The notes under the pieces: generated by a model | Told to the model about the DNA's origin: nothing | The model's input: only the letters and a program-made list of their open reading frames with translations | Databases searched by the model: none | In this document: positions 2,616 through 25,718 of the stretch, one piece after another | Layout: each line of letters opens with the position of its first letter | Position numbering within the stretch: the stretch's first letter is position 1 | Origin: an uncultured Nitrososphaeria archaeon | Lineage (GTDB): Archaea > Thermoproteota > Nitrososphaeria_A > Caldarchaeales > Wolframiiraptoraceae | Direction of reading: 5' to 3' | Length of the DNA stretch: 32,000 bases | Assembly (NCBI GenBank): GCA_964396455.1 | Contig: CAYNFG010000004.1 | Span: forward strand, 4,161 to 36,160 | Translations under genes and position numbers: made by a program

Positions 2616-3108
2616 GAAGGTGAAGGTTCTGGACTCAGCAGCATTCATCCTAGGCTTTACGGAGGCTTCGGGCGAGCTGGCGGTCACGTCAAGTAAGGTT
2701 TTGGAGGAGGCTAAATACGGTGGAGCGAGGTATAGGGCTTTAGCTAGCAAGGAGGGAGAGATGATAAAGATAATCGATCCTAAGCCAGAATACCTTAAGG
2801 AGGTTATGGAGCTTGCAAGGAGGATGGGCGAGCTAGAATTATCCGAGGCAGATCTAAGCATTCTAGCGCTCGCGCTCCAGCTTTCCCGAGAAGGCTTCGA
2901 GCCATGCCTCGTAACCTCAGACTACTCGATCCAGAATCTAGCATCCAAGCTCGGGATAGGAATACAGCCGATACTTCATGATGGGATAAAGAGGATGATA
3001 AGCTGGGAGACCTATTGTAGCGTCTGCAAATGGAGCGGGGAGGCCGCTCCAGGAGAGCCATGCCCAAGATGTGGGCATAGGCTGAAGAGGAGGCCGAGAA
3101 AGACGTGA
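2608..3108 (+). CDS. nob1: Nob1-like PIN-domain endonuclease with C-terminal zinc ribbon (pre-16S rRNA 3' end maturation)
   Basis: N-terminal PIN acidic residues (VLDSAAF, SEADLS, TSDYS). C-terminal CSVC...CPRCGHRLKRR zinc ribbon. The TTG start overlaps the nadK stop. Confidence 0.7.
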   Translation: MARKVKVLDSAAFILGFTEASGELAVTSSKVLEEAKYGGARYRALASKEGEMIKIIDPKPEYLKEVMELARRMGELELSEADLSILALALQLSREGFEPCLVTSDYSIQNLASKLGIGIQPILHDGIKRMISWETYCSVCKWSGEAAPGEPCPRCGHRLKRRPRKT

Positions 3109-3626
3109 GGATAAGAATACTCTCAGAGCTTAAAGATGAGGAGGTCCTAAGAAGGATTGCGGATGTTCTAAGAGAGATTTATGGGGAGGAGGTAGAATTG
3201 GAGCTTGCCGAAAGCCTGATCGATGAAAGATTTCTAAACCCCATCAGAAGGCAATATGATGCTTGGAGGATAGTCCAATACTATCAACATATTCCAGAAG
3301 CTGATGAATACGTGCTATTAGTAACGGATAGGGATTTATACGCCGCAGGACTTAACTTCGTATTCGGCCTAGCGTGGAGGAGGGTGGCGATAATCTCAAC
3401 CCATAGGCTTCATCCAGAATTCTATGGCCAACCAGCAGATCGAGAACTCTTCATCGAAAGAGCCTTGAAGGAGGCGGTTCATGAGATCGGCCATCTTCAC
3501 GGGCTATCGCACTGCAAGAATGAGAGGTGCGTGATGAGGTTCAGCAACTCGATCCTAGATACGGACTACAAATCCTATATGCCATGCGAAAAATGCTTGG
3601 CGAAGCTAAGACTCCTCAGATCCTAA
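3105..3626 (+). CDS. amzA: Archaemetzincin (AmzA family zinc metalloprotease)
   Basis: HEIGHLHGLSHC motif followed by CVM...C..C cysteines, which is the archaemetzincin signature. The GTG start overlaps the nob1 TGA as GTGA. Confidence 0.85.
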   Translation: MRIRILSELKDEEVLRRIADVLREIYGEEVELELAESLIDERFLNPIRRQYDAWRIVQYYQHIPEADEYVLLVTDRDLYAAGLNFVFGLAWRRVAIISTHRLHPEFYGQPADRELFIERALKEAVHEIGHLHGLSHCKNERCVMRFSNSILDTDYKSYMPCEKCLAKLRLLRS

Positions 3627-4025
3627 CTGCTTATTCTTCTCCTCAAGCTCCTTTAGAACCTGCTTTACATAGGATCTCGGTAGAGCGCCCGCCTCGATTA
3701 GATTGACTATGGAGTTCGGCGAGGCTTTGCCCGAGACCTTTCCGAGAGTCCCCTTAACCTGCCTCCAGATCAGGCTCGTATTCCCGCTCTTAGAATTATA
3801 GATTACTCCGAGAACCTCATACGCCTTAACAAATCGGATATCCCGAATCTCTCCTAAATCAAGCTTGGAAAGAGCCTCAACATAGATCCTACCAGGATTG
3901 ATATCTCTCTCCGGGAAGATGGTTGGATCTTTCAGATAGCCTTTTGGAATGAATGAGTAGCAGGTGTTCAGGATTACAAACCTTCTAAACTTTTCAAGCG
4001 TCGTCCTTATCTCGATCTCCACCAC
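3606..4025 (-). CDS. Hypothetical protein (139 aa), GTG start
   Basis: ORF with the local codon bias. I recognise no family motif. Its 3' end overlaps the amzA 3' end convergently by 21 nt. Confidence 0.5.
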   Translation of the reverse strand: MVEIEIRTTLEKFRRFVILNTCYSFIPKGYLKDPTIFPERDINPGRIYVEALSKLDLGEIRDIRFVKAYEVLGVIYNSKSGNTSLIWRQVKGTLGKVSGKASPNSIVNLIEAGALPRSYVKQVLKELEEKNKQLGSEES

Positions 4026-4176: not shown

Positions 4177-4227
4177 GCTAGAGAATATTCCTTAATAATT
4201 TGAGGAGCCTTACCCGGCAGGGAGGAG

Positions 4228-5985
4228 ATGACTTCGAAGGAGAGGGCTGCAAGCTCGCTGAAAGAATCCGCGAAGCCTACTGGCACCTATATTCGAGAGG
4301 TTATCCTCGAGAATTTCATGAGCCACGAGTATTCTAGAATCCCGCTTAAGCCTGGAATGAACTTGATAACTGGGCCTAATGGCGCTGGAAAATCCTCCAT
4401 ACTCCTCGGGATAGCCGTCGCCCTAGGCCAAACCTATACAGATAGAGCTGAGAGGCTTAGCGATCTAATCAGGAGGGGGGAGAAGGCTGCTAGAGTAACG
4501 GTGGTCTTCGATAATAGGGAAGTGGATGGGAAGAGACCTATACCATGGCTGAACTCGGATCAACTAGTTATTACAAGATACTTGAAAAGAAGCGGCGAGT
4601 ACTGGCATTACGTTAATAATAGGCTTAAGACGAAGGCCGAGGTCGAGCACCTCCTCAAGAGGCTTGGCATAAACCCGAACAATATGCTGATAATAATGCA
4701 TCAGAATATGATAGAGGAATTCGCTGCAAGAAATAACGTCGAGAAGCTTAGAATGGTCGAGGACGCCGTCGGAGCATCCCAGTTCAGGCAGAGGATAATC
4801 GAGGCCGAGGCAAAATTAAAAGATATCCAAACGCAGGAGAAAAGCCTGAAAAGAGCATTAGAGGAGGCGAAGGCAGCAGTAGACTACTGGAAGGAGCAAT
4901 ATGAGAAGCTTCTAATGAAGAAGAGGCTGGAAGAGGAAAAGCGGAGGCTCGAGTTAGAATATGCTTGGGCTATAGTAGCCGAAGCAGAGGCGTCAATAAA
5001 CAGGATTAGAGAAAAGATCGAAGCCCTAATGCTTGAGGAGAGAAAGCTCCTCGGAGAGATAGAATATCATGAAGCAGAGGTCGATAGAATCAAGAAGAGT
5101 CTAATAGACCTGATAGAAGCCATCAAGCGAGGAGAACTCGTAAACCTAGAAGGCTTCGAAAAAGATCTGGATATCCTATTGGAGGAGAAGGGCGCGGCCG
5201 AGGTCTCGAAGTATAAGCTTCAGCTAAACAAGTCTGAGCAAAAGAGGCTCGGCTACGAGCTTAGGAGGCTTGAAAAAGAGCTTGCAGAAAAGACTAGGAA
5301 CGCATCTGCTCTCGGCGAGAGAATTAAGACTAGTAGAAAGCCTGCCGAAGTCCTCGAAGAGCTGAAATCGATCTCGCTTAAGATCGCATCCCTAGGAGAG
5401 GTCTTAGAGGAGGCTGAGGATATGTATCTAATAGCCGACTCTAGATATCGGGAAACCGAGCAGAAGTCCATGGAGGTGGAGGAGAATCTCAAAAGAGCCT
5501 TGGAGGAGGTCGAGTATAGGAAGGAGGTTTGGAGGAAATTCCTCAGAAATCTCGTAAATGAGGTTGAGCCTCAGTTTAACGCGATCCTCTCCCATGTCGG
5601 CGGCAAGGGCAGGATAGTCCTTAGAAATCTGGAGAATCCTGAGAAAGCCAGTATAGAGCTCCACGTAGGCTTTAGGGGGGCAGATCCCGTGCTGCTCGAC
5701 GCCCAGACGCATAGCGGGGGAGAGAGGATAGTCGGGACGCTAGCCTTCCTACTAGCCTTGCAGAAATATGTTAAATCACCGTTCAGGGCGGTCGATGAGT
5801 TCGACGTCCACCTCGATCCGCTAAATAGAGAACGCATGATAGAACTCCTCCTAAGCGTAGCTGGGGGGGAGGAGAGAACCCAATATATCATAATAACGCC
5901 TGGAAAGATACCGGTTACCGAGGAGATGAACATAATCATAGTCCAGAATATAGGCGGAAAATCCGTGATCGGGAAAGCGGGATAG
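4228..5985 (+). CDS. SMC5/6-like ABC ATPase with very short coiled coil and no hinge ('mini-SMC')
   Basis: Walker A GPNGAGKSS preceded by ENFMSH. Q-loop MHQN. Signature motif HSGGER. Walker B/D-loop SPFRAVDEFDVHLDPLNRER. C-terminal QYIIITPGK, with TP in place of the canonical SMC TH. Residues ~180-455 are heptad-rich. The protein contains no cysteine. Confidence 0.8.
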   Translation: MTSKERAASSLKESAKPTGTYIREVILENFMSHEYSRIPLKPGMNLITGPNGAGKSSILLGIAVALGQTYTDRAERLSDLIRRGEKAARVTVVFDNREVDGKRPIPWLNSDQLVITRYLKRSGEYWHYVNNRLKTKAEVEHLLKRLGINPNNMLIIMHQNMIEEFAARNNVEKLRMVEDAVGASQFRQRIIEAEAKLKDIQTQEKSLKRALEEAKAAVDYWKEQYEKLLMKKRLEEEKRRLELEYAWAIVAEAEASINRIREKIEALMLEERKLLGEIEYHEAEVDRIKKSLIDLIEAIKRGELVNLEGFEKDLDILLEEKGAAEVSKYKLQLNKSEQKRLGYELRRLEKELAEKTRNASALGERIKTSRKPAEVLEELKSISLKIASLGEVLEEAEDMYLIADSRYRETEQKSMEVEENLKRALEEVEYRKEVWRKFLRNLVNEVEPQFNAILSHVGGKGRIVLRNLENPEKASIELHVGFRGADPVLLDAQTHSGGERIVGTLAFLLALQKYVKSPFRAVDEFDVHLDPLNRERMIELLLSVAGGEERTQYIIITPGKIPVTEEMNIIIVQNIGGKSVIGKAG

Positions 5986-6004
5986 GATCCGGAGGCTAAA
6001 CCCT

Positions 6005-6766
6005 ATGATCGAGAAGAGGTTTAGGGTTTCGAGAGAGGAGCTTGAGAAGATTATTCAGATATGTGAGAATATCGAGAAGCGTGGGCTGAACCCCTTCACG
6101 ATCAACGTTCGAGATATCCTCTCAAAGCTTAGGAGGATGCTTGAGGAGAACCTCGACCTAGATTATTATGTTCTCGATGCCGAGACCATGTATAAGATCA
6201 CAACCCTGATAGCTCTCCAGCATAGATGGCTTAGGGAGAAGGCTCAGGCGCTCTTCGTAGATGCTCAGATGATCGAGACGAGGCTACTCGCCCTAGACAA
6301 GAAATCGATCGTGAGAGCATTTCTCAAAGCATGGAGACCTATAATCTCTCTCGAGCATATCACCCTACAGAGGCTGAGGCAGGGGGCGGAACATTTCCTA
6401 AGCCTACCTCCGAGAGGAGAGGAGAGATCATGGGGCTGGAAGGTCTCCCAGAAGGATGTCGAATTTCTTAAGACGAGCCTAGAATCCGAAGAAGAATTAT
6501 CCCAGAAGGTTAAAAGCCTGCACGAGGAGCTTCTCAGAGAATACGAGGCAGGAGGAGAAGTAGATTACTGGAGCTTCATAAATAGGGGCGGGTTCGAGAA
6601 AAACTTTGAGCGAGCATATCTACTAAGCTTCCTCATAACCGAAGGATATGTCGATGTAAAGCGGAATCCGCTCAAGGGCGAGATAAAGCTCATCCCCAGA
6701 AGGGAGAAGGCTGAAAGAAAACAGCCGGTCTCCCTAGTCATAGTTATGAGAGGTGAGGATAAGTGA
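6005..6766 (+). CDS. scpA: ScpA-like kleisin
   Basis: N-terminal RGLNPFTINVRDIL resembles the archaeal ScpA motif (G-x-INPWDIDV). The C-terminal block ERAYLLSFLITEGYVDVKRNP..GEIKLIP is winged-helix-like. It starts 19 nt after the SMC-like gene. Confidence 0.6.
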   Translation: MIEKRFRVSREELEKIIQICENIEKRGLNPFTINVRDILSKLRRMLEENLDLDYYVLDAETMYKITTLIALQHRWLREKAQALFVDAQMIETRLLALDKKSIVRAFLKAWRPIISLEHITLQRLRQGAEHFLSLPPRGEERSWGWKVSQKDVEFLKTSLESEEELSQKVKSLHEELLREYEAGGEVDYWSFINRGGFEKNFERAYLLSFLITEGYVDVKRNPLKGEIKLIPRREKAERKQPVSLVIVMRGEDK

Positions 6767-7326
6767 GCAACGAGGATACGTTCTCCAGAAAGCTCATGAC
6801 CGCAGCGGCCATGCTCCTATTCAAAAGCCATCGAAAACCGGGCGTGAAGGGATGGGAACTGAAGCATAGGCTGGGGAAGAATTACATGAAGATCATAGAC
6901 GCCCTAAACTCTTATCTCAAGAGGATAGGCTTGGAGGTGAAGACGGTCTTCGAGGAGGGCGAAGACCTCGATAAAGCCCGATTCTATGTAACCTTCGCCC
7001 ATCCGCTAACCCTATCAGATCTAGTAACAGCCGGATGGAGTATAGATGAGGTCGCCGTGCTCGCCGTAACCCTCTCGATACTTGCAAGTAGAGGAGGAAA
7101 GGCGCCCGCTAAAGAGGTGCTCGAAATACTCCAAACAAAGCTGCCGAGATGGAGGGCTGAAGCCCATCTAGAAAGAGCCATCAGAAGAGGATACATCGAG
7201 AAAACGGAGGAAGACATGCTCGTAATAGGCTGGAGGACGAAAGTCGAGATAGATCAGAAGGAACTTCTAAAATCTCTGCTTGAGATGAAGCCTGAAGAAG
7301 CTGCTGAAGAGGATTCTAAAGAGTAG
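6763..7326 (+). CDS. scpB: ScpB-like / KITE-family tandem winged-helix protein
   Basis: Two WH-like halves (AAMLLFKSHRKPGVKGWELKHRL...; VLAVTLSILASRGGKAPAKEVLEIL...RRGYIEK) and an acidic tail. The GTG start overlaps the kleisin TGA as GTGA. An alternative ATG lies at 6796. Confidence 0.5.
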   Translation: MSNEDTFSRKLMTAAAMLLFKSHRKPGVKGWELKHRLGKNYMKIIDALNSYLKRIGLEVKTVFEEGEDLDKARFYVTFAHPLTLSDLVTAGWSIDEVAVLAVTLSILASRGGKAPAKEVLEILQTKLPRWRAEAHLERAIRRGYIEKTEEDMLVIGWRTKVEIDQKELLKSLLEMKPEEAAEEDSKE

Positions 7327-22322: not shown

Positions 22323-25300
22323 ATGGAAGAGGATTATGCAAAGCTTATCGAGGAGAAGTTTAGAGAAGCGTATGAGGTTGCGGTCGAGGCTAGAAGGAGG
22401 ATAGGATCTCCAACACCCGAGGTGGAGATCCTTCTAGCGAGAGACCTTGCTGAGAGGGTTGAGCTTCTGGTCGGTCCAAGGGGCGTTGCCGAGAAGATTA
22501 GAAGATACTTTGGAAAGATCTCTCAGGAGGAGCTCGCCTTTAAACTCGCCGAGGAGCTCGTTCGAGAGCTTAGGGGGAGGATGGATGATGAGAAGCTTAT
22601 CCTTCAGGTTGTGAGAACCTGTCTCGCGGTCTTAACTCCGCCATGCATCACGGCGGCGCCGACCGAGGGCATAGTCGATGCCAAGATAAAGCAGAACCCG
22701 GATGGAAGCAGGTATCTGGCCATATACTTCGCCGGCCCTATTAGATCCGCCGGAGGAACCGAGCTCGCCTCAATAATACTGTTAGCAGATCATGTCCGGA
22801 GGCTTCTCGGCCTCGATAGATATAAGCCGACGGATGAGGAGGTTTTAAGATTCATAGAAGAGCTTAGAATCTATCAGAGGAAGGTTTCAAGATTTCAGTA
22901 TAACGTCCCCGAAGACCTCCTCGAATTCATCCTGAGAAGGCTTCCGGTCGAGGTTACCGGGATAGCGACCGATAAAATCCCGGTCTCATCCTTCAGAGAC
23001 CTGCCGCGCGTCGAGACGAATTATCTTAGGGGCGGGGCTTTAAGAGTCGTTAATGATGGAATAGCTGGAAGAGCTAAGAAGGTTCTGAAGCTCGTTGAAG
23101 CCCTCAAGCTCGAGGGGTGGGAGTGGATAAGAGAGGTCGCCGAACGCATGAAAAACCTCTCCAACAGCGATGAGCAAAGCTATCTCGAAGAGCTCGTCGG
23201 CGGAAGACCGTTCATATCCACGACAAGCAGATTCGGCGGGCTTCGAATAAGGTATGGAAGATCTTTCTCGACCGGAATGCAGGCCGTAGGCTTACATCCA
23301 TTAACCTTAAAGCTGCTGAACGGATATATCACGACCGGAACCCAGCTAAAGCTAGATTACCCCGGGAAGGGGGGCATAGTATCGCCCGTAGACTCGATAG
23401 AGCCTCCGATCGTCATGCTCGATGATGGAAGCGTCGTCAAGCTTAGATCCGAAGAAGATTACAAGCGAGTTGAGGGCAGGATATCGAAGGTATTATTCCT
23501 AGGGGATATACTAATCTCCATAGGAGACCTCATAGAGAACAACGTTGAAATCAAGAAGCCGGGCTACTGCGAGGAATGGTGGGCTGAAGAGCTTAGGAAA
23601 AAGCTTGAAGAGGCGAGCCTACCTCGAGAGCTTGAAGAATCCGTTAGACGCATTCTGGAAGATCCTCTTCGAAGAAAGCCGTCAATAGGAGAGGCTATCA
23701 GATTAAGCATCATCTTAAAACTCCCACTCCATCCAGAATACCTGCCCTTTTGGGGTAACGTATCGATTCAGGATCTCGAGAAGCTTAGATCTTGGATCAG
23801 AAACGGCCTTAGGGCGTCGAGGATATCGTCATCCGGGGCATCCCTCCCATACGATCCTGAAGTAAAGAATATTCTCACGCTACTTTTGATAGAGCATAGG
23901 ACAGCCGGAAGCGAGATAATCTTACCAATCTACTGGCTTAAGACCTTGATAGCATGCCTGAGACCGTTCAACAATGAGAGAATCGATGAAAGGATGAATG
24001 TCTTCTCGGCAGTCGAGAAGCTATCAGGGATACCGCAGAGGGATAAGGGCGGCTCGTTTATCGGGGCGAGGATGGGTAGACCTGAGAAGGCTGCTCAAAG
24101 GGAGATGAGCCCTCCGGTAAACGTCTTATTCCCGATAGGCGATGCCGGGGGGAGCGCGAGAGACATTATCGCGGCGGCAAAGAGTAGGAAGAGGATAATA
24201 GTGGAGCTAGCCGATAGAAGATGCCCGAAATGCGGTAAAGCGACGTGGAAGGATGTTTGCCCAGAGTGCGGTGAGCCGACGAAACTGATCGGGGTATGCG
24301 GAAGATGCGGATACGAGGTAGAATACTCGGAGGAGGGGAAGACTTGTCCGAGATGCGGCGGCAACATAAGCTACTCTAAAAAGCATGCTCTAGATATCGA
24401 GGAGGAGTTCTTCAAAGCCTTGAAGAAGCTCTCCGAGCAAGCTCCCGCAAAGCTCAAGGGGGTAAAGGGATTGAATAGCATTCCAAAAGTCCCAGAGCTT
24501 TTAGAGAAGGGGATATTGAGGGCGAAGCATGATCTATACATATACAAGGATGGGACGATACGCTTCGACGCGACGAATGCGCCCCTCACCCATTTCACGC
24601 CGAGGCAGATAGGGGTATCCGTTGAAAAGCTTAGGAAGCTCGGATATACCCACGATATATTCGGAAGGGAGCTATTCTCTCCAGACCAGATTCTGGAGCT
24701 CAAACTTCAGGATGTCGTGATCTCGAGGAGGGCTGCCGAACATCTTCTAAAAGTCTCCAAGTTCATAGACGAGCTATTGGTTAAGCTAGCTGGGATGCAG
24801 CCATTCTATAGGCTCAAGACTATAGACGATTTGATAGGAGAGCTTATCCTCGCTTTATCGCCTCACACCTACGCCGGGGTAGTAGGCAGGATAATAGGAT
24901 TCACGGACTCGCTCGTATGCTTCGCCCATCCAGTATTCCACGCAGCTAAGAGGAGAGACTGCGATGGAGATGAGGATAGCATAATGCTCCTCCTAGATCC
25001 GCTCATAAACTTCTCAAGACTATACCTACCGGGGAGGGTTGGAGGCAAAATGGACTCACCCCTACTACTAACTGTGATCGTAGATCCGAAGGAGGTGGAT
25101 GAGCAGGCTCATAACCTCGACACCCTAGACAGGATACCGTTAGAGTTCTATGAGGCGGCCGAGAAGGAGAAGCATATCTCGGAGCTGGCCGACATAATCC
25201 CGACTATAGGAAGCCTGCTTAAAGACGGCAAACCCCTCAGGATAGGATTCACCCATCCGCAGAAAGATCTCGTAGCCCACCCGGTCGAGTCCTCCTATAA

Positions 25301-25718
25301 GAGGTATGGAAGCATGCTGGAGAAGATCCTAGGCCAGCTCGAGCTAGCCGAGAAGATAGCCGCAGTAGATGAGAGCTACGTCGCGGAGAAGATGGTCGAA
25401 ACCCACCTCCTCTCAGATATCCTAGGAAATATGAGAGCATTCTTCCTCCAGAAATTCAGATGCAAGAAATGCGGCACAAGATATAGGAGGATACCATTAA
25501 CAGGAAGGTGCATAAACTGCGGCGGAGAGATCACGCAGACGGTCTTTAGGGGAGCAGTCGAGAAATACGTCGAGCTCGTCGATAAGGTTCTGCTCAAGAA
25601 GCTCAGAGACCCCTATCTCAAGGAGAGGGTCTCCCTAGCCCTCGAGAATATAAAATCGATATTCGAGGCTGAGGAGCAGGAGCAGGCATCTCTCGAGGAA
25701 TTCATGCTGGAGACCTAG
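22323..25718 (+). CDS. polC: DNA polymerase D (Pol II) large catalytic subunit DP2
   Basis: 1131 aa. Multiple Cys4 zinc modules (CPKCGK...CPECGE; CGRCGY...CPRCGG; CKKCGT...CINCGG). Conserved DP2 blocks such as HPVFHAAKRRDCDGDED. No intein interruption is evident. Confidence 0.9.
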   Translation: MEEDYAKLIEEKFREAYEVAVEARRRIGSPTPEVEILLARDLAERVELLVGPRGVAEKIRRYFGKISQEELAFKLAEELVRELRGRMDDEKLILQVVRTCLAVLTPPCITAAPTEGIVDAKIKQNPDGSRYLAIYFAGPIRSAGGTELASIILLADHVRRLLGLDRYKPTDEEVLRFIEELRIYQRKVSRFQYNVPEDLLEFILRRLPVEVTGIATDKIPVSSFRDLPRVETNYLRGGALRVVNDGIAGRAKKVLKLVEALKLEGWEWIREVAERMKNLSNSDEQSYLEELVGGRPFISTTSRFGGLRIRYGRSFSTGMQAVGLHPLTLKLLNGYITTGTQLKLDYPGKGGIVSPVDSIEPPIVMLDDGSVVKLRSEEDYKRVEGRISKVLFLGDILISIGDLIENNVEIKKPGYCEEWWAEELRKKLEEASLPRELEESVRRILEDPLRRKPSIGEAIRLSIILKLPLHPEYLPFWGNVSIQDLEKLRSWIRNGLRASRISSSGASLPYDPEVKNILTLLLIEHRTAGSEIILPIYWLKTLIACLRPFNNERIDERMNVFSAVEKLSGIPQRDKGGSFIGARMGRPEKAAQREMSPPVNVLFPIGDAGGSARDIIAAAKSRKRIIVELADRRCPKCGKATWKDVCPECGEPTKLIGVCGRCGYEVEYSEEGKTCPRCGGNISYSKKHALDIEEEFFKALKKLSEQAPAKLKGVKGLNSIPKVPELLEKGILRAKHDLYIYKDGTIRFDATNAPLTHFTPRQIGVSVEKLRKLGYTHDIFGRELFSPDQILELKLQDVVISRRAAEHLLKVSKFIDELLVKLAGMQPFYRLKTIDDLIGELILALSPHTYAGVVGRIIGFTDSLVCFAHPVFHAAKRRDCDGDEDSIMLLLDPLINFSRLYLPGRVGGKMDSPLLLTVIVDPKEVDEQAHNLDTLDRIPLEFYEAAEKEKHISELADIIPTIGSLLKDGKPLRIGFTHPQKDLVAHPVESSYKRYGSMLEKILGQLELAEKIAAVDESYVAEKMVETHLLSDILGNMRAFFLQKFRCKKCGTRYRRIPLTGRCINCGGEITQTVFRGAVEKYVELVDKVLLKKLRDPYLKERVSLALENIKSIFEAEEQEQASLEEFMLET

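Follow-up and report, generated by a model that had tools for sequence, protein, structure and literature searches.

A short-armed, hingeless ATPase in an archaeal SMC5/6-related operon from a Caldarchaeales genome

Relatives of the eukaryotic SMC5/6 complex have been recognised in archaea in the past years. The archaeal "SMC5/6-related aSMC" has already been catalogued (Yoshinaga & Inagaki 2021, PMC8665677; also PMC9389158), and van Hooff et al. (bioRxiv 10.1101/2024.01.07.573240) have reported that archaea, Caldarchaeales included, possess operons that combine Nse4-related kleisins with Nse1/3-like kites. Table S3 of that study credits Caldarchaeales genomes with an SMC5/6-related SMC plus a kite of the Nse1/3-related type, with no Nse4-related kleisin listed for Caldarchaeum subterraneum, and for some archaea, e.g. 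Conexivisphaera calida, the SMC5/6-related complex is the only SMC complex listed. While the family and the operon are therefore already known, short arms and an absent hinge are mentioned in neither the text nor the supplements of PMC8665677 and bioRxiv 10.1101/2024.01.07.573240, where the word 'hinge' is confined to introductions, legends to figures and reference lists.

The window analysed here, a stretch of 32,000 nucleotides from a Caldarchaeales ("Aigarchaeota") genome of a hot-spring archaeon, can be assigned with high confidence a chromosomal operon of this SMC5/6-related type. A preliminary description had taken the locus to encode a small SMC5/6-like ATPase and its own kleisin and KITE partners, a core reading borne out by head, profile and fold matches. 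The three open reading frames and their junctions are as that description gave them, all on the forward strand: an SMC-type ABC ATPase or 'mini-SMC' of 585 aa, of the archaeal SMC5/6-related family (4228–5985, ATG start), a putative kleisin of Nse4-related type of 253 aa (6005–6766, ATG start) and a putative KITE of Nse1/Nse3 (MAGE)-like type of 187 aa (6763–7326, GTG start). The 19-nt gap between the first two genes (5986–6004) holds a GGAGG Shine-Dalgarno-like motif (5991–5995), 9 nt upstream of the kleisin ATG, and the GTG of the KITE gene (6763) overlaps the kleisin TGA (6764–6766) as GTGA. An A/T-rich TTAATAATTT box (4192–4201), 27–36 nt upstream of the ATPase start, is a possible, if weak, candidate for an archaeal TATA element. 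That the three genes are real is indicated by the numbers of homologues retrieved: over 3000 for the ATPase, 88 for the kleisin and 1153 for the KITE.

The ATPase matches Pfam SMC_N (E=7.5e-35), and in a phmmer search of the PDB it scores best against SMC5 of yeast and human, human SMC6 and Pyrococcus Smc (~1e-30 to 1e-31). The best Foldseek matches of its AlphaFold2 model (pLDDT 84) are 5xei, a structure of the Pyrococcus yayanosii Smc head that includes coiled coil and joint (E=1e-22), and Smc5/6 heads. Judged from sequence, this is a true SMC head, and its motifs indicate that it is complete and catalytically intact. The N-terminal half (residues 21–183; 4288–4776), delimited by motif alignment and by conservation over 40 members, carries the Walker A motif GPNGAGKS (4372–4395) and the Q-loop Gln159 (4702–4704); N45, G49–S56 and Q159 are invariant in 40 diverse family members. 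The C-terminal half (residues 458–585; 5599–5982), delimited by conservation and by comparison with SMC6, SMC5 and canonical Smc, carries the signature SGGER (5713–5727) and the Walker B and D-loop stretch AVDEFDVHLD (5788–5817), with S496–E499, D523, E524, H528, D530 and P558 invariant in the same set and the Walker B glutamate retained. The SMC5/SMC6-like character ascribed earlier to these motifs holds when real sequences are aligned: ENFMSH, SPFRAVDEFDVHLDPLNRER and QYIIITPGK have NFMCH, SPFRCLDEFDVYMDMVNRR and LLTPQS as their counterparts in bird SMC6, whereas canonical archaeal Smc has GFKSF, F..FDEVDAHMD and ISLK, the last at the position of the SMC5/6-type ITPGK.

The two downstream proteins had been described as a ScpA-like kleisin and a tandem winged-helix protein of ScpB/KITE-like type. 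A kleisin profile and a tandem winged-helix fold are indeed found, and in both cases it is the Scp part of the assignment that does not stand. The window's kleisin scores 16.5 bits against Pfam Nse4_C (E=0.01), under the threshold of 26; Nse4_C is matched by 15 of 28 family members, with a best value of 9.9e-7, and Pfam SMC_ScpA by neither the window's protein nor its family members. Searched against the PDB, the family profile prefers yeast Nse4 (1.3e-4) to human EID3 (0.027), an NSE4 paralogue, and to the Pyrococcus ScpA C-domain (0.85). On these family-level matches the 253-aa protein appears to be an Nse4-like kleisin, with its C-terminal winged-helix region at roughly residues 175–240 (nt about 6527–6724), and in all loci examined its gene stands between those of the SMC and the KITE. 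As for the 187-aa protein, the model (pLDDT 82.6) shows tandem winged helices, WH-A at ~residues 3–78 and WH-B at ~94–162. The top Foldseek PDB matches are MAGE-G1/NSE1 (5hvq; 3.5e-6 and 8.3e-6), Nse1-Nse3-Nse4 (7dg2) and MAGE-A3/A4, followed by MukE, with ScpB absent from the best 50; Pfam ScpB is matched by neither this protein nor its family members. Pfam MAGE is matched by 10 and SMC_Nse1 by 3 of 28 family members, the window's protein itself reaching 15.6 bits against MAGE (threshold 25). The family-level matches and the predicted fold thus point to an Nse1/Nse3 (MAGE)-like KITE, whose sequence contains neither a RING domain nor a cysteine.

Between the head halves of the ATPase lie 274 residues (184–457; ~275 had been estimated) of long predicted helices with a turn at 301–306, modelled as a simple hairpin of antiparallel coiled coil with ~117 residues in each strand, roughly 17 nm long, so that the arms have about a third of the normal length. 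The ascending helix (residues 184–300; 4777–5127; pLDDT 85–94) leads to the tip RGELVN (residues 301–306; 5128–5145), at the place otherwise taken by a hinge or zinc hook, and the descending coiled coil (residues 307–457; 5146–5598) consists of helices 307–362, 372–388 and 396–457, with breaks at 363–371 and 389–395 that, in the model, probably correspond to the SMC 'joint'. As the preliminary description had held, hinge and zinc hook are both missing from the ATPase: there is no Pfam SMC_hinge match, no hinge-like segment in the model and no CxxC, the full sequence containing 0 cysteines. Among the 40 family members, the neck, which is the head-proximal part of the ascending helix, has invariant L197, W221 and W247, while the distal part of that helix is variable; in the descending coil W435 is invariant, and Y400, E427 and R431 reach 90% conservation or more.

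The SMC ATPase would form a homodimer and be joined by one Nse4-like kleisin and the Nse1/3-like KITE, presumably in a 2:1:2 stoichiometry after Smc-ScpAB and MukBEF. The ATPase has kept the head, the conserved neck and the joint, and its arms end in a simple, poorly conserved hairpin. In yeast Smc5/6, the DNA clamp is built of the heads, the necks and Nse1-3-4 (PMC9191643). These are exactly the parts kept here, and it is on this ground that an ATP-gated DNA clamp is proposed, with moderate confidence and by analogy. ATP would engage both SMC heads, the kleisin would link one SMC at its neck with the other at its cap, and a KITE dimer would shut above the duplex DNA resting on the heads. As no hinge is present, only kleisin/KITE and ATP would hold the two SMCs together, and DNA entrapment should therefore be reversible in each ATPase cycle; large-step loop extrusion seems unlikely. 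The likely role is in chromosome maintenance or repair rather than in defence. Taken as a whole, with an SMC5/6-related complex, an ATP-gated clamp, a maintenance or repair role and a derived short form, this is the explanation that we favour and regard as reasonably probable.

A less likely alternative is that the complex is the same but forms a small closed ring. Two ATPases could dimerise through their hairpin tips or their aligned arms, unseen by a monomer model and e.g. as a four-helix bundle resembling the coiled-coil interface of RecN, which would allow topological DNA entrapment and, possibly, translocation or loop extrusion at a small step size. Every kleisin-binding SMC known so far is stably dimerised at the arm end. 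Arms of 257–390 residues are kept in every family member compared, which suggests that they have a function, and in related forms from Bathyarchaeota a CxxC hook is present halfway along the arm, suggesting that arm-end dimerisation matters in some members of the clade. Against a closed ring speak the lack of any cysteine or hinge-like segment and the distribution of conservation in the 40 members, which clusters in the neck and not in the tip; within the protein, conservation is lowest at this tip, whose length varies among relatives through insertions of up to about 30 residues.

A defence module against plasmids or viruses, analogous to Wadjet (JetABC+D), Lamassu (LmuB) or restriction by human SMC5/6, is very unlikely, and with it the plasmid-restriction role suggested earlier. 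Short-armed SMC-like ATPases are typical of Lamassu, human SMC5/6 restricts viral DNA (PMC10586767), and the ATPase gives generic PADLOC matches (mad3 116 bits, LmuB 76 bits). However, kleisin and KITE match no PADLOC model, no KITE relatives were found on viral contigs (IMG/VR) or plasmids (PLSDB), and the Walker B glutamate is kept, unlike in LmuB, where it is generally substituted by Q (PMC10586767). The operon neighbours an archaemetzincin, an unknown 139-aa ORF, a YaaH-type transporter and an Obg-like GTPase, in a housekeeping context of PolD, AglB, eIF2-alpha and NAD kinase; synteny with the archaemetzincin is common to another Caldarchaeales genome. Neither a nuclease gene of Toprim/JetD or Mre11/SbcD type, as already noted, nor another effector gene adjoins it, and, as mentioned, such a complex is the sole SMC complex listed in some archaea. 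Less likely still is a hingeless repair ATPase of another family (Rad50/SbcC, RecN, ASRP/coalescin) with unrelated downstream genes. The ATPase does resemble RecN, ASRP and LmuB in its size and in having a short coiled coil, and NCBIfam gives 86.9 bits for ASRP and ~70 bits for Rad50. This reading is contradicted by the ASRP cutoff of 300 bits and the higher SMC_prok_A score (210.6 bits), by PDB sequence and fold matches to SMC many orders of magnitude above Rad50, with RecN also far weaker in sequence searches, by the missing zinc hook, which most ASRPs and Rad50 possess (PMC9389158), by the absence of an adjacent Mre11 gene and by the strict co-conservation of the kleisin- and KITE-like genes with the ATPase. 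A truncated or mis-assembled full-length smc gene, conceivable for a protein of half the usual length from a metagenome-assembled genome, is refuted by the intact frame with both head halves, the continuous modelled coiled coil, the length of the closest relatives (mostly about 540–690 aa in a search of 1.84 billion representative proteins, the homologues coming from many separate assemblies, at identities from 98% down to about 40%) and a metagenome survey of 80 loci, where all 48 complete ATPase homologues upstream of a kleisin-KITE pair are short (about 567–690 aa).

The three-gene module occurs in the same order in four TACK lineages, namely Caldarchaeales, Bathyarchaeia, Culexarchaeia and Thermofilales, and the short ATPase is also present in Korarchaeota. 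Beyond the archaeal family, 7 of 10 next-best matches checked among the 1.84 billion proteins are eukaryotic SMC6/SMC5, canonical-type Smc appearing too. An unrooted neighbour-joining tree of heads, built without SMC1-4 and Rad50, separates the short family plus eukaryotic SMC5/6 from archaeal and bacterial Smc in 200 of 200 bootstraps, which is consistent with an SMC5/6 clade without proving one; the distances from the window's head to archaeal Smc (1.53) and to eukaryotic SMC5/6 (1.59) are about the same. A hinge-bearing relative of 982 aa branches beside the short clade and, because its partner genes are homologous, the mini form appears to be derived and not ancestral, probably by secondary reduction of a hinge-bearing SMC5/6-related ancestor through loss of the hinge and distal arms. 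It is therefore probably not a primitive minimal SMC with a bearing on the origin of SMC5/6, a relevance that had been suggested as possible.

With regard to known systems, MukBEF and Wadjet JetABC(D) share the SMC, kleisin and KITE architecture, and MukE ranks second, behind Nse1/Nse3/MAGE, among the fold classes matched by the KITE. Nonetheless, MukB and JetC are long and hinged, JetC reaches only 26 bits, and JetA/JetB matches and a JetD/Toprim gene are lacking here. RecN, LmuB, ASRP/coalescin (ClsN) and Rad50 resemble the ATPase in joining an ABC head to a short antiparallel coil without a globular hinge, LmuB, RecN and ASRP also in size (about 550–650 aa), but their sequence scores are far under those to SMC, most of the group use a CxxC zinc hook, and none is known to bind kleisin or KITE (PMC10586767). 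Smc-ScpAB follows the same logic of SMC homodimer, kleisin and KITE dimer in a compact operon, with a head fold near that of Pyrococcus Smc. It differs in its head motifs and its SMC_ScpA/ScpB Pfam domains, and canonical Smc has about 1150–1200 aa with a hinge (e.g. P0427).

Eukaryotic SMC5/6 has in common with this locus SMC6-like head motifs, an Nse4_C-type kleisin C-domain and a MAGE/Nse1-type tandem winged-helix KITE, the parts shared being those of the DNA clamp. It uses an SMC5/SMC6 heterodimer and Nse1 plus Nse3, in contrast to one SMC gene, predicted to give a homodimer, and a single, RING-less KITE gene here, with no Nse2 or Nse5/6 gene found nearby; the hingeless arms of ~117 residues per strand contrast with yeast and human SMC5/6 proteins of about 1070–1160 aa. 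The operons of the archaeal SMC5/6-related aSMC come closest of all, this locus being one of them with no difference at the family level: their three components and type of operon recur here, the hosts are likewise TACK archaea, and the heads group with SMC5/6 against canonical Smc. In comparison with the C. subterraneum entry of van Hooff et al., the kleisin of this clade is here recognised at profile level.

The three open reading frames of the preliminary description were recovered by ORF calling, all on the forward strand, and encode an SMC ATPase of 585 aa (4228-5985), a kleisin of 253 aa (6005-6766) and a KITE protein of 187 aa (6763-7326, with a GTG start). A 19-nt gap with a GGAGG 9 nt before the kleisin ATG separates the first two genes, and the second junction is a 4-nt GTGA start/stop overlap. 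The operon is flanked on both sides by ordinary chromosomal genes. As annotated, those upstream encode a protein with DUF1246/DUF1297 domains that we take to be PurP-like, a NAD kinase, a PIN-domain ribonuclease, presumably Nob1-like, and an archaemetzincin, and those downstream a YaaH-type transporter, an Obg-like GTPase, AglB/STT3, PAC2 and eIF2-alpha. Inspection of the neighbours bears out the previously noticed absence of an adjacent Toprim or Mre11/SbcD gene, and no other DNA nuclease gene adjoins the operon in the window. No canonical smc is found within the 32-kb window, where the sole ORF of SMC-like length, farther downstream on the forward strand (22323-25718), was rejected as a candidate, being the PolD large subunit DP2 (1131 aa). 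Homologue names place the window in the Caldarchaeales ("Aigarchaeota"), near Candidatus Wolframiiraptor, at 81% identity. Directly upstream of the operon, on the opposite strand, lies a 139-aa ORF without a Pfam match (3606-4025, reverse strand), which shares 21 nt at its 3' end with the end of the archaemetzincin gene (3105-3626); another Caldarchaeales genome has an unannotated 145-aa gene at the same archaemetzincin-side spot (L086:9433-9870).

The ATPase has a complete split ABC head, in which the Walker A GPNGAGKS, the Q-loop Q159, the signature SGGER and the Walker B/D-loop DEFD/VHLD are invariant in an alignment of 40 diverse relatives. It matches Pfam SMC_N at 7.5e-35, and the best NCBIfam model is SMC_prok_A, with 210.6 bits, far under the full-length cutoff of that model. 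Against the sequences of solved structures, yeast SMC5 (2e-31), Pyrococcus Smc heads (~1e-30) and human SMC5 and SMC6 (~3-5e-30) come first, while SMC1-4 (1e-19 to 1e-10) and Rad50 (~1e-8) match more weakly. The SMC reading put forward earlier therefore stands, with SMC and SMC5/6 matches far above those of Rad50, RecN and ASRP in the profile and sequence searches. Membership of Rad50/SbcC is rejected by the lack of a cysteine/CxxC hook and of a nearby Mre11/SbcD gene, and by model scores of ~35-71 bits (Rad50 itself ~70) against cutoffs of 700-1087; RecN is rejected on a score much weaker than that of SMC_prok_A. The ASRP (coalescin/Sph) family, NF045487, is rejected at 86.9 bits against a cutoff of 300 and by the missing CxxC, as a zinc hook is present in most ASRP members (PMC9389158).

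The arm is where this protein departs from the usual SMC plan. The AlphaFold2 model (25 homologues, pLDDT 84.4) shows a normal split head, a helix (184-300), a six-residue turn (301-306) and a returning arm that folds back on the helix in three segments (307-362, 372-388 and 396-457). The two breaks are probably the SMC joint, since the top structural match of the model is the Pyrococcus yayanosii "Smc head with coiled coil and joint" (5xei, 1e-22), with Smc5/6 head regions next, the head fold matches spanning 1e-22 to 1e-18. Each strand of this simple hairpin has ~117 residues, which at 0.15 nm per residue gives an arm roughly 17 nm long, about one third of the usual length. The globular hinge and zinc hook held to be missing in the preliminary description are indeed absent: Pfam finds no SMC_hinge in the ATPase, the 274 residues between the head halves leave no space for one, the modelled tip is six residues long and there is no CxxC, the protein being devoid of cysteine, as had been noted. 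The neck residues L197, W221, W247 and W435 are invariant among the 40 diverse relatives.

With regard to the partners, the kleisin and winged-helix assignments made earlier hold and their ScpA/ScpB-like naming does not, profiles and fold pointing instead to Nse4-like and Nse1/3-like proteins. No SMC_ScpA or ScpB match was obtained for the window proteins or for any of the 28 kleisin and 28 KITE family members. The window kleisin alone reaches Nse4_C below threshold (Pfam E=0.01), and 15 of the 28 kleisin family members match it, the best at 9.9e-7. Against the PDB, the kleisin family profile finds yeast Nse4 (1.3e-4) and human EID3, an NSE4 paralogue (0.027), while the Pyrococcus ScpA C-domain scores just 0.85 and no ScpA does better. 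The gene adjoining the ATPase gene thus encodes an Nse4_C-like C-domain and is strictly co-conserved with the SMC gene, bridging of neck and cap being its predicted role. The KITE model has two winged helices (pLDDT 82.6), and its best PDB folds are MAGE-G1/NSE1 (5hvq), Nse1-Nse3-Nse4 (7dg2) and MAGE-A3/A4, then MukE, with ScpB absent from the best 50. Within the KITE family, Pfam MAGE is matched by 10 of 28 members and SMC_Nse1 by three, and some homologues carry the source name 'MAGE domain-containing protein'. The KITE assignment rests on the fold search and these family-level matches, since the family profile finds nothing significant among PDB sequences. The protein has no cysteine and so no RING. 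With an Nse4-related kleisin, an Nse1/3-like (MAGE-type) kite, three clustered genes and an SMC head that groups with eukaryotic SMC5/6 (see below), the operon shows the features of an archaeal SMC5/6-related complex.

The SMC6-like head motifs of the preliminary description hold when aligned with real sequences. The short family and eukaryotic SMC6 have in common NFM[SC]H before Walker A, SPFR..DEFDV.[ML]D..NR and ITP, the counterparts in canonical archaeal Smc being GFKSF, F..FDEVDAH[ML]D and ISLK. When 1.84 billion cluster representatives are searched, a mixture of long proteins comes next after the archaeal family. Seven of ten that were looked up are eukaryotic; the names are SMC6/RAD18 (five, RAD18 here being the yeast-type orthologue of SMC6) and SMC5 (one), with two unnamed, and the ten also include the proteins P0427 and P0436, which group with canonical Smc in neighbour-joining trees. 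Head columns separate the short family plus eukaryotic SMC5/6 from archaeal plus bacterial Smc in 200 of 200 bootstraps of a four-group neighbour-joining tree, which is unrooted, crude and leaves out SMC1-4 and Rad50. The distance of the window head to archaeal Smc (1.53) and to eukaryotic SMC5/6 (1.59) is about equal. This sequence-based tree is consistent with, and no substitute for, the published rooted sub-clade of SMC5, SMC6 and "SMC5/6-related" aSMC, with support of 100%/0.99 (PMC9389158).

Close relatives in several TACK lineages are predominantly of the short form. Nearly all homologues between 98% and 51% identity have 576-636 aa, and the closest clusters among the 1.84 billion representatives, to ~36% identity, are mostly ~540-690 aa. 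The same three-gene order, confirmed by BLASTP, occurs in Caldarchaeales (L086), Bathyarchaeia (L001 and L002, with a 657-aa SMC), Culexarchaeia (L087, 621 aa) and Thermofilales (L006, 639 aa), and Korarchaeota have a 555-aa member. Furthermore, among 80 metagenome loci retrieved with a KITE profile, 48 carry a complete SMC gene ahead of a kleisin-KITE pair, and the estimated products are without exception 567-690 aa (median 644). An assembly artefact or truncated smc is rejected, with equally short homologues at many levels of identity and every one of the 48 metagenome copies short; on the orthologue-length check proposed earlier, the close relatives are not full-length Smc. An ATPase-alignment scan of genome contigs used a Walker A pattern too generic for the short family, and among the matches listed 78 of 80 were ordinary bacterial or archaeal Smc and the only family members were L006 and L007.

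In many lineages the KITE gene has an Lhr-type SF2 helicase gene as its immediate downstream neighbour, usually convergent, and the two gene ends abut (-1 to +18 nt). This neighbour was found in 15 of the 61 metagenome loci whose downstream sequence reaches 1 kb or more (for example L107, L110, L111, L114, L116, L138 and L155), as well as in Thermofilales (L006:3951-6788, reverse strand), another Caldarchaeales genome (L086:13104-15932, reverse strand) and a locus with a hinge-bearing SMC (L088:10599-11962, forward strand); it is absent downstream of the KITE gene in the window. The adjacency may reflect either a functional connection with DNA repair or ancient synteny.

Longer relatives bear on the origin of the short form. 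The middle of P0383, a protein of 982 aa, is not coiled; this region has SMC_hinge as its best Pfam match, below threshold (E=0.0046), and finds no hinge among PDB sequences. The P0383 gene lies in the same module (L088:4014-8261), followed by clear homologues of the window kleisin (3e-34) and KITE (3e-29). In the 835-aa P0404 (L089:5001-8632) the hinge is unequivocal (4.6e-11), and two small genes come next in the locus, of which the latter encodes a distant KITE homologue; both loci keep the gene order of the window, SMC, then ~210-250 aa, then ~170-180 aa. P0383 branches beside the short clade, the joint clade having 84% bootstrap, in a first neighbour-joining tree that lacked the fourth group, is uninformative on SMC5/6 affinity and serves within-family relationships only. 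Since hinges occur in these relatives, in canonical Smc and in eukaryotic SMC5/6, the simplest reading of the sequences and of a crude tree is that the hinge and the distal parts of the arms were lost within the archaeal SMC5/6-related lineage, giving the short form. The preliminary description had allowed that a minimal complex of this kind might bear on the origin of SMC5/6; its polarity is corrected accordingly, as hinge-bearing relatives with the same partners point to a probable reduction.

Some Bathyarchaeota relatives end their arms differently. P0356 (L005:6001-9087), P0357 and P0375, of 1016-1047 aa, and P0392, of 795 aa, have heads ~40% identical to that of the window and, at the arm midpoint, a conserved I.C[DE][KR]CGS.L...QW, a Rad50-like CxxC zinc hook. 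The first three nest inside the short-form clade, with 97% bootstrap together with P0339, in the same within-family tree. No kleisin or KITE gene adjoins the P0356 gene, which stands by itself, and residues 341-676 in the centre of the protein match the middle of the ASRP model at 85 bits. Such proteins resemble an SMC5/6-related head placed on a hook-type arm. The arm end appears to be plastic within the clade: the 982-aa protein has a hinge, most members have a plain hairpin, and some Bathyarchaeota carry a Rad50/ASRP-like CxxC hook. Eight metagenome loci have a KITE gene, paired with a kleisin gene in seven, and no SMC gene upstream or downstream on either strand of the sequence available (L146, L147, L161, L164, L099, L121, L109 and L152). 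In such genomes the SMC may be encoded at another locus, possibly as the stand-alone hook-bearing form.

The family and its operon are already published, which corrects the novelty first attached to the operon's identity. Yoshinaga & Inagaki (2021) listed 80 "SMC5/6-related aSMC" homologues, 66 of them in TACK (PMC8665677), and van Hooff et al. (bioRxiv 10.1101/2024.01.07.573240, 2025 version) described TACK and Asgard operons with an SMC5/6-related SMC, an Nse4-related kleisin and an Nse1/3-like kite. For Caldarchaeum subterraneum, their Table S3 gives one SMC5/6-related SMC and one Nse1/3-related kite, with no Nse4-related kleisin and no canonical SMC detected, while two other Caldarchaeales genomes have a canonical-type SMC. 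The same table lists a ScpA-like kleisin and a ScpB-like kite for C. subterraneum, whose sole SMC there is the SMC5/6-related one; if it is right, both kleisin/kite sets might depend on a single (short?) SMC, unless a canonical smc was missed. Conexivisphaera calida is entered there with the SMC5/6-related set alone. Because Table S3 and the earlier surveys already cover such operons, Caldarchaeales included, the window operon is a member of a catalogued archaeal SMC5/6-related family. Both Yoshinaga & Inagaki and van Hooff et al., the latter including the supplements, are silent on hinge and arm length in their archaeal proteins. Literature searches on hingeless or short-armed archaeal SMC5/6-like complexes, in an incomplete library, turned up a general review and nothing on this architecture, and an earlier description elsewhere is possible; the architecture is probably under-reported. 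The observation in the preliminary description is confirmed as a whole and its interpretation supported, with partner names, evolutionary polarity and novelty corrected.

To our knowledge, every mechanistic model of SMC action (ring entrapment, segment capture, loop extrusion) presumes a stable dimer at the arm end. The most far-reaching interpretation, to which we give clearly less than an even chance, is that the short form is a widespread hingeless, kleisin/KITE-bound class in which the SMCs are joined only via ATP-engaged heads and the kleisin-KITE bridge, forming a reversible clamp and no ring or extruder. ATP would engage two SMC heads, the kleisin would run from one SMC's neck to its partner's cap, and the KITE dimer would close over DNA; without a hinge, the compartment would open upon every head disengagement. 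Such an ATP-gated clamp is proposed as the mechanism, with moderate confidence, because the window operon keeps the equivalents of the parts that build the DNA-encircling clamp of the yeast Smc5/6-DNA structure, namely engaged heads, necks and Nse1-3-4 (PMC9191643). Neither stable topological entrapment nor large-step loop extrusion would be expected of a hingeless complex. The main rival is that the hairpin tips or arms of two ATPases dimerise, restoring a small ring, against which the tip is unconserved, being the least conserved segment of the ATPase and varying in length through insertions in the family alignment; were the tips to dimerise, the finding would shrink to a short-armed variant of a known complex. 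A defence module, including the plasmid-restriction-type idea entertained at the outset, is unlikely, with no effector gene adjoining the operon, a housekeeping gene context and no relatives of the KITE among viral contigs (IMG/VR) or plasmids (PLSDB).

If the hingeless-clamp reading is true, most TACK complexes used to discuss SMC5/6 origin would be architecturally unlike SMC5/6, and the 585+253+187 aa system would be a minimal one for dissecting the need for arms and hinge. A natural kleisin/KITE-bound SMC without an arm-end dimer would test which activities need one. The complex is small and presumably thermostable, as most source lineages are from hot springs, which would make it attractive for structural and single-molecule work. 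Scenarios deriving SMC5/6 from archaea should also weigh that most TACK members are reduced, and that hinge-bearing relatives with the same partners exist.

Among known systems, Wadjet (JetABCD) and Lamassu (LmuABC) were rejected, since no PADLOC model matches the kleisin or the KITE, the ATPase gives generic matches only and the context is housekeeping. Smc-ScpAB has a ScpA (SMC_ScpA) kleisin and a ScpB kite, and the window operon matches neither. Eukaryotic SMC5/6 consists of an SMC5/SMC6 heterodimer with two KITEs (Nse1, with a RING, and Nse3), the Nse2 SUMO ligase and Nse5/6, whereas the window operon has one SMC gene, one KITE gene and no RING, with no further SMC5/6 subunit genes in its neighbourhood. 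Compared with SMC proteins proper, the window ATPase lacks the globular dimerising hinge and shares with them the head and the long antiparallel coiled-coil arm.
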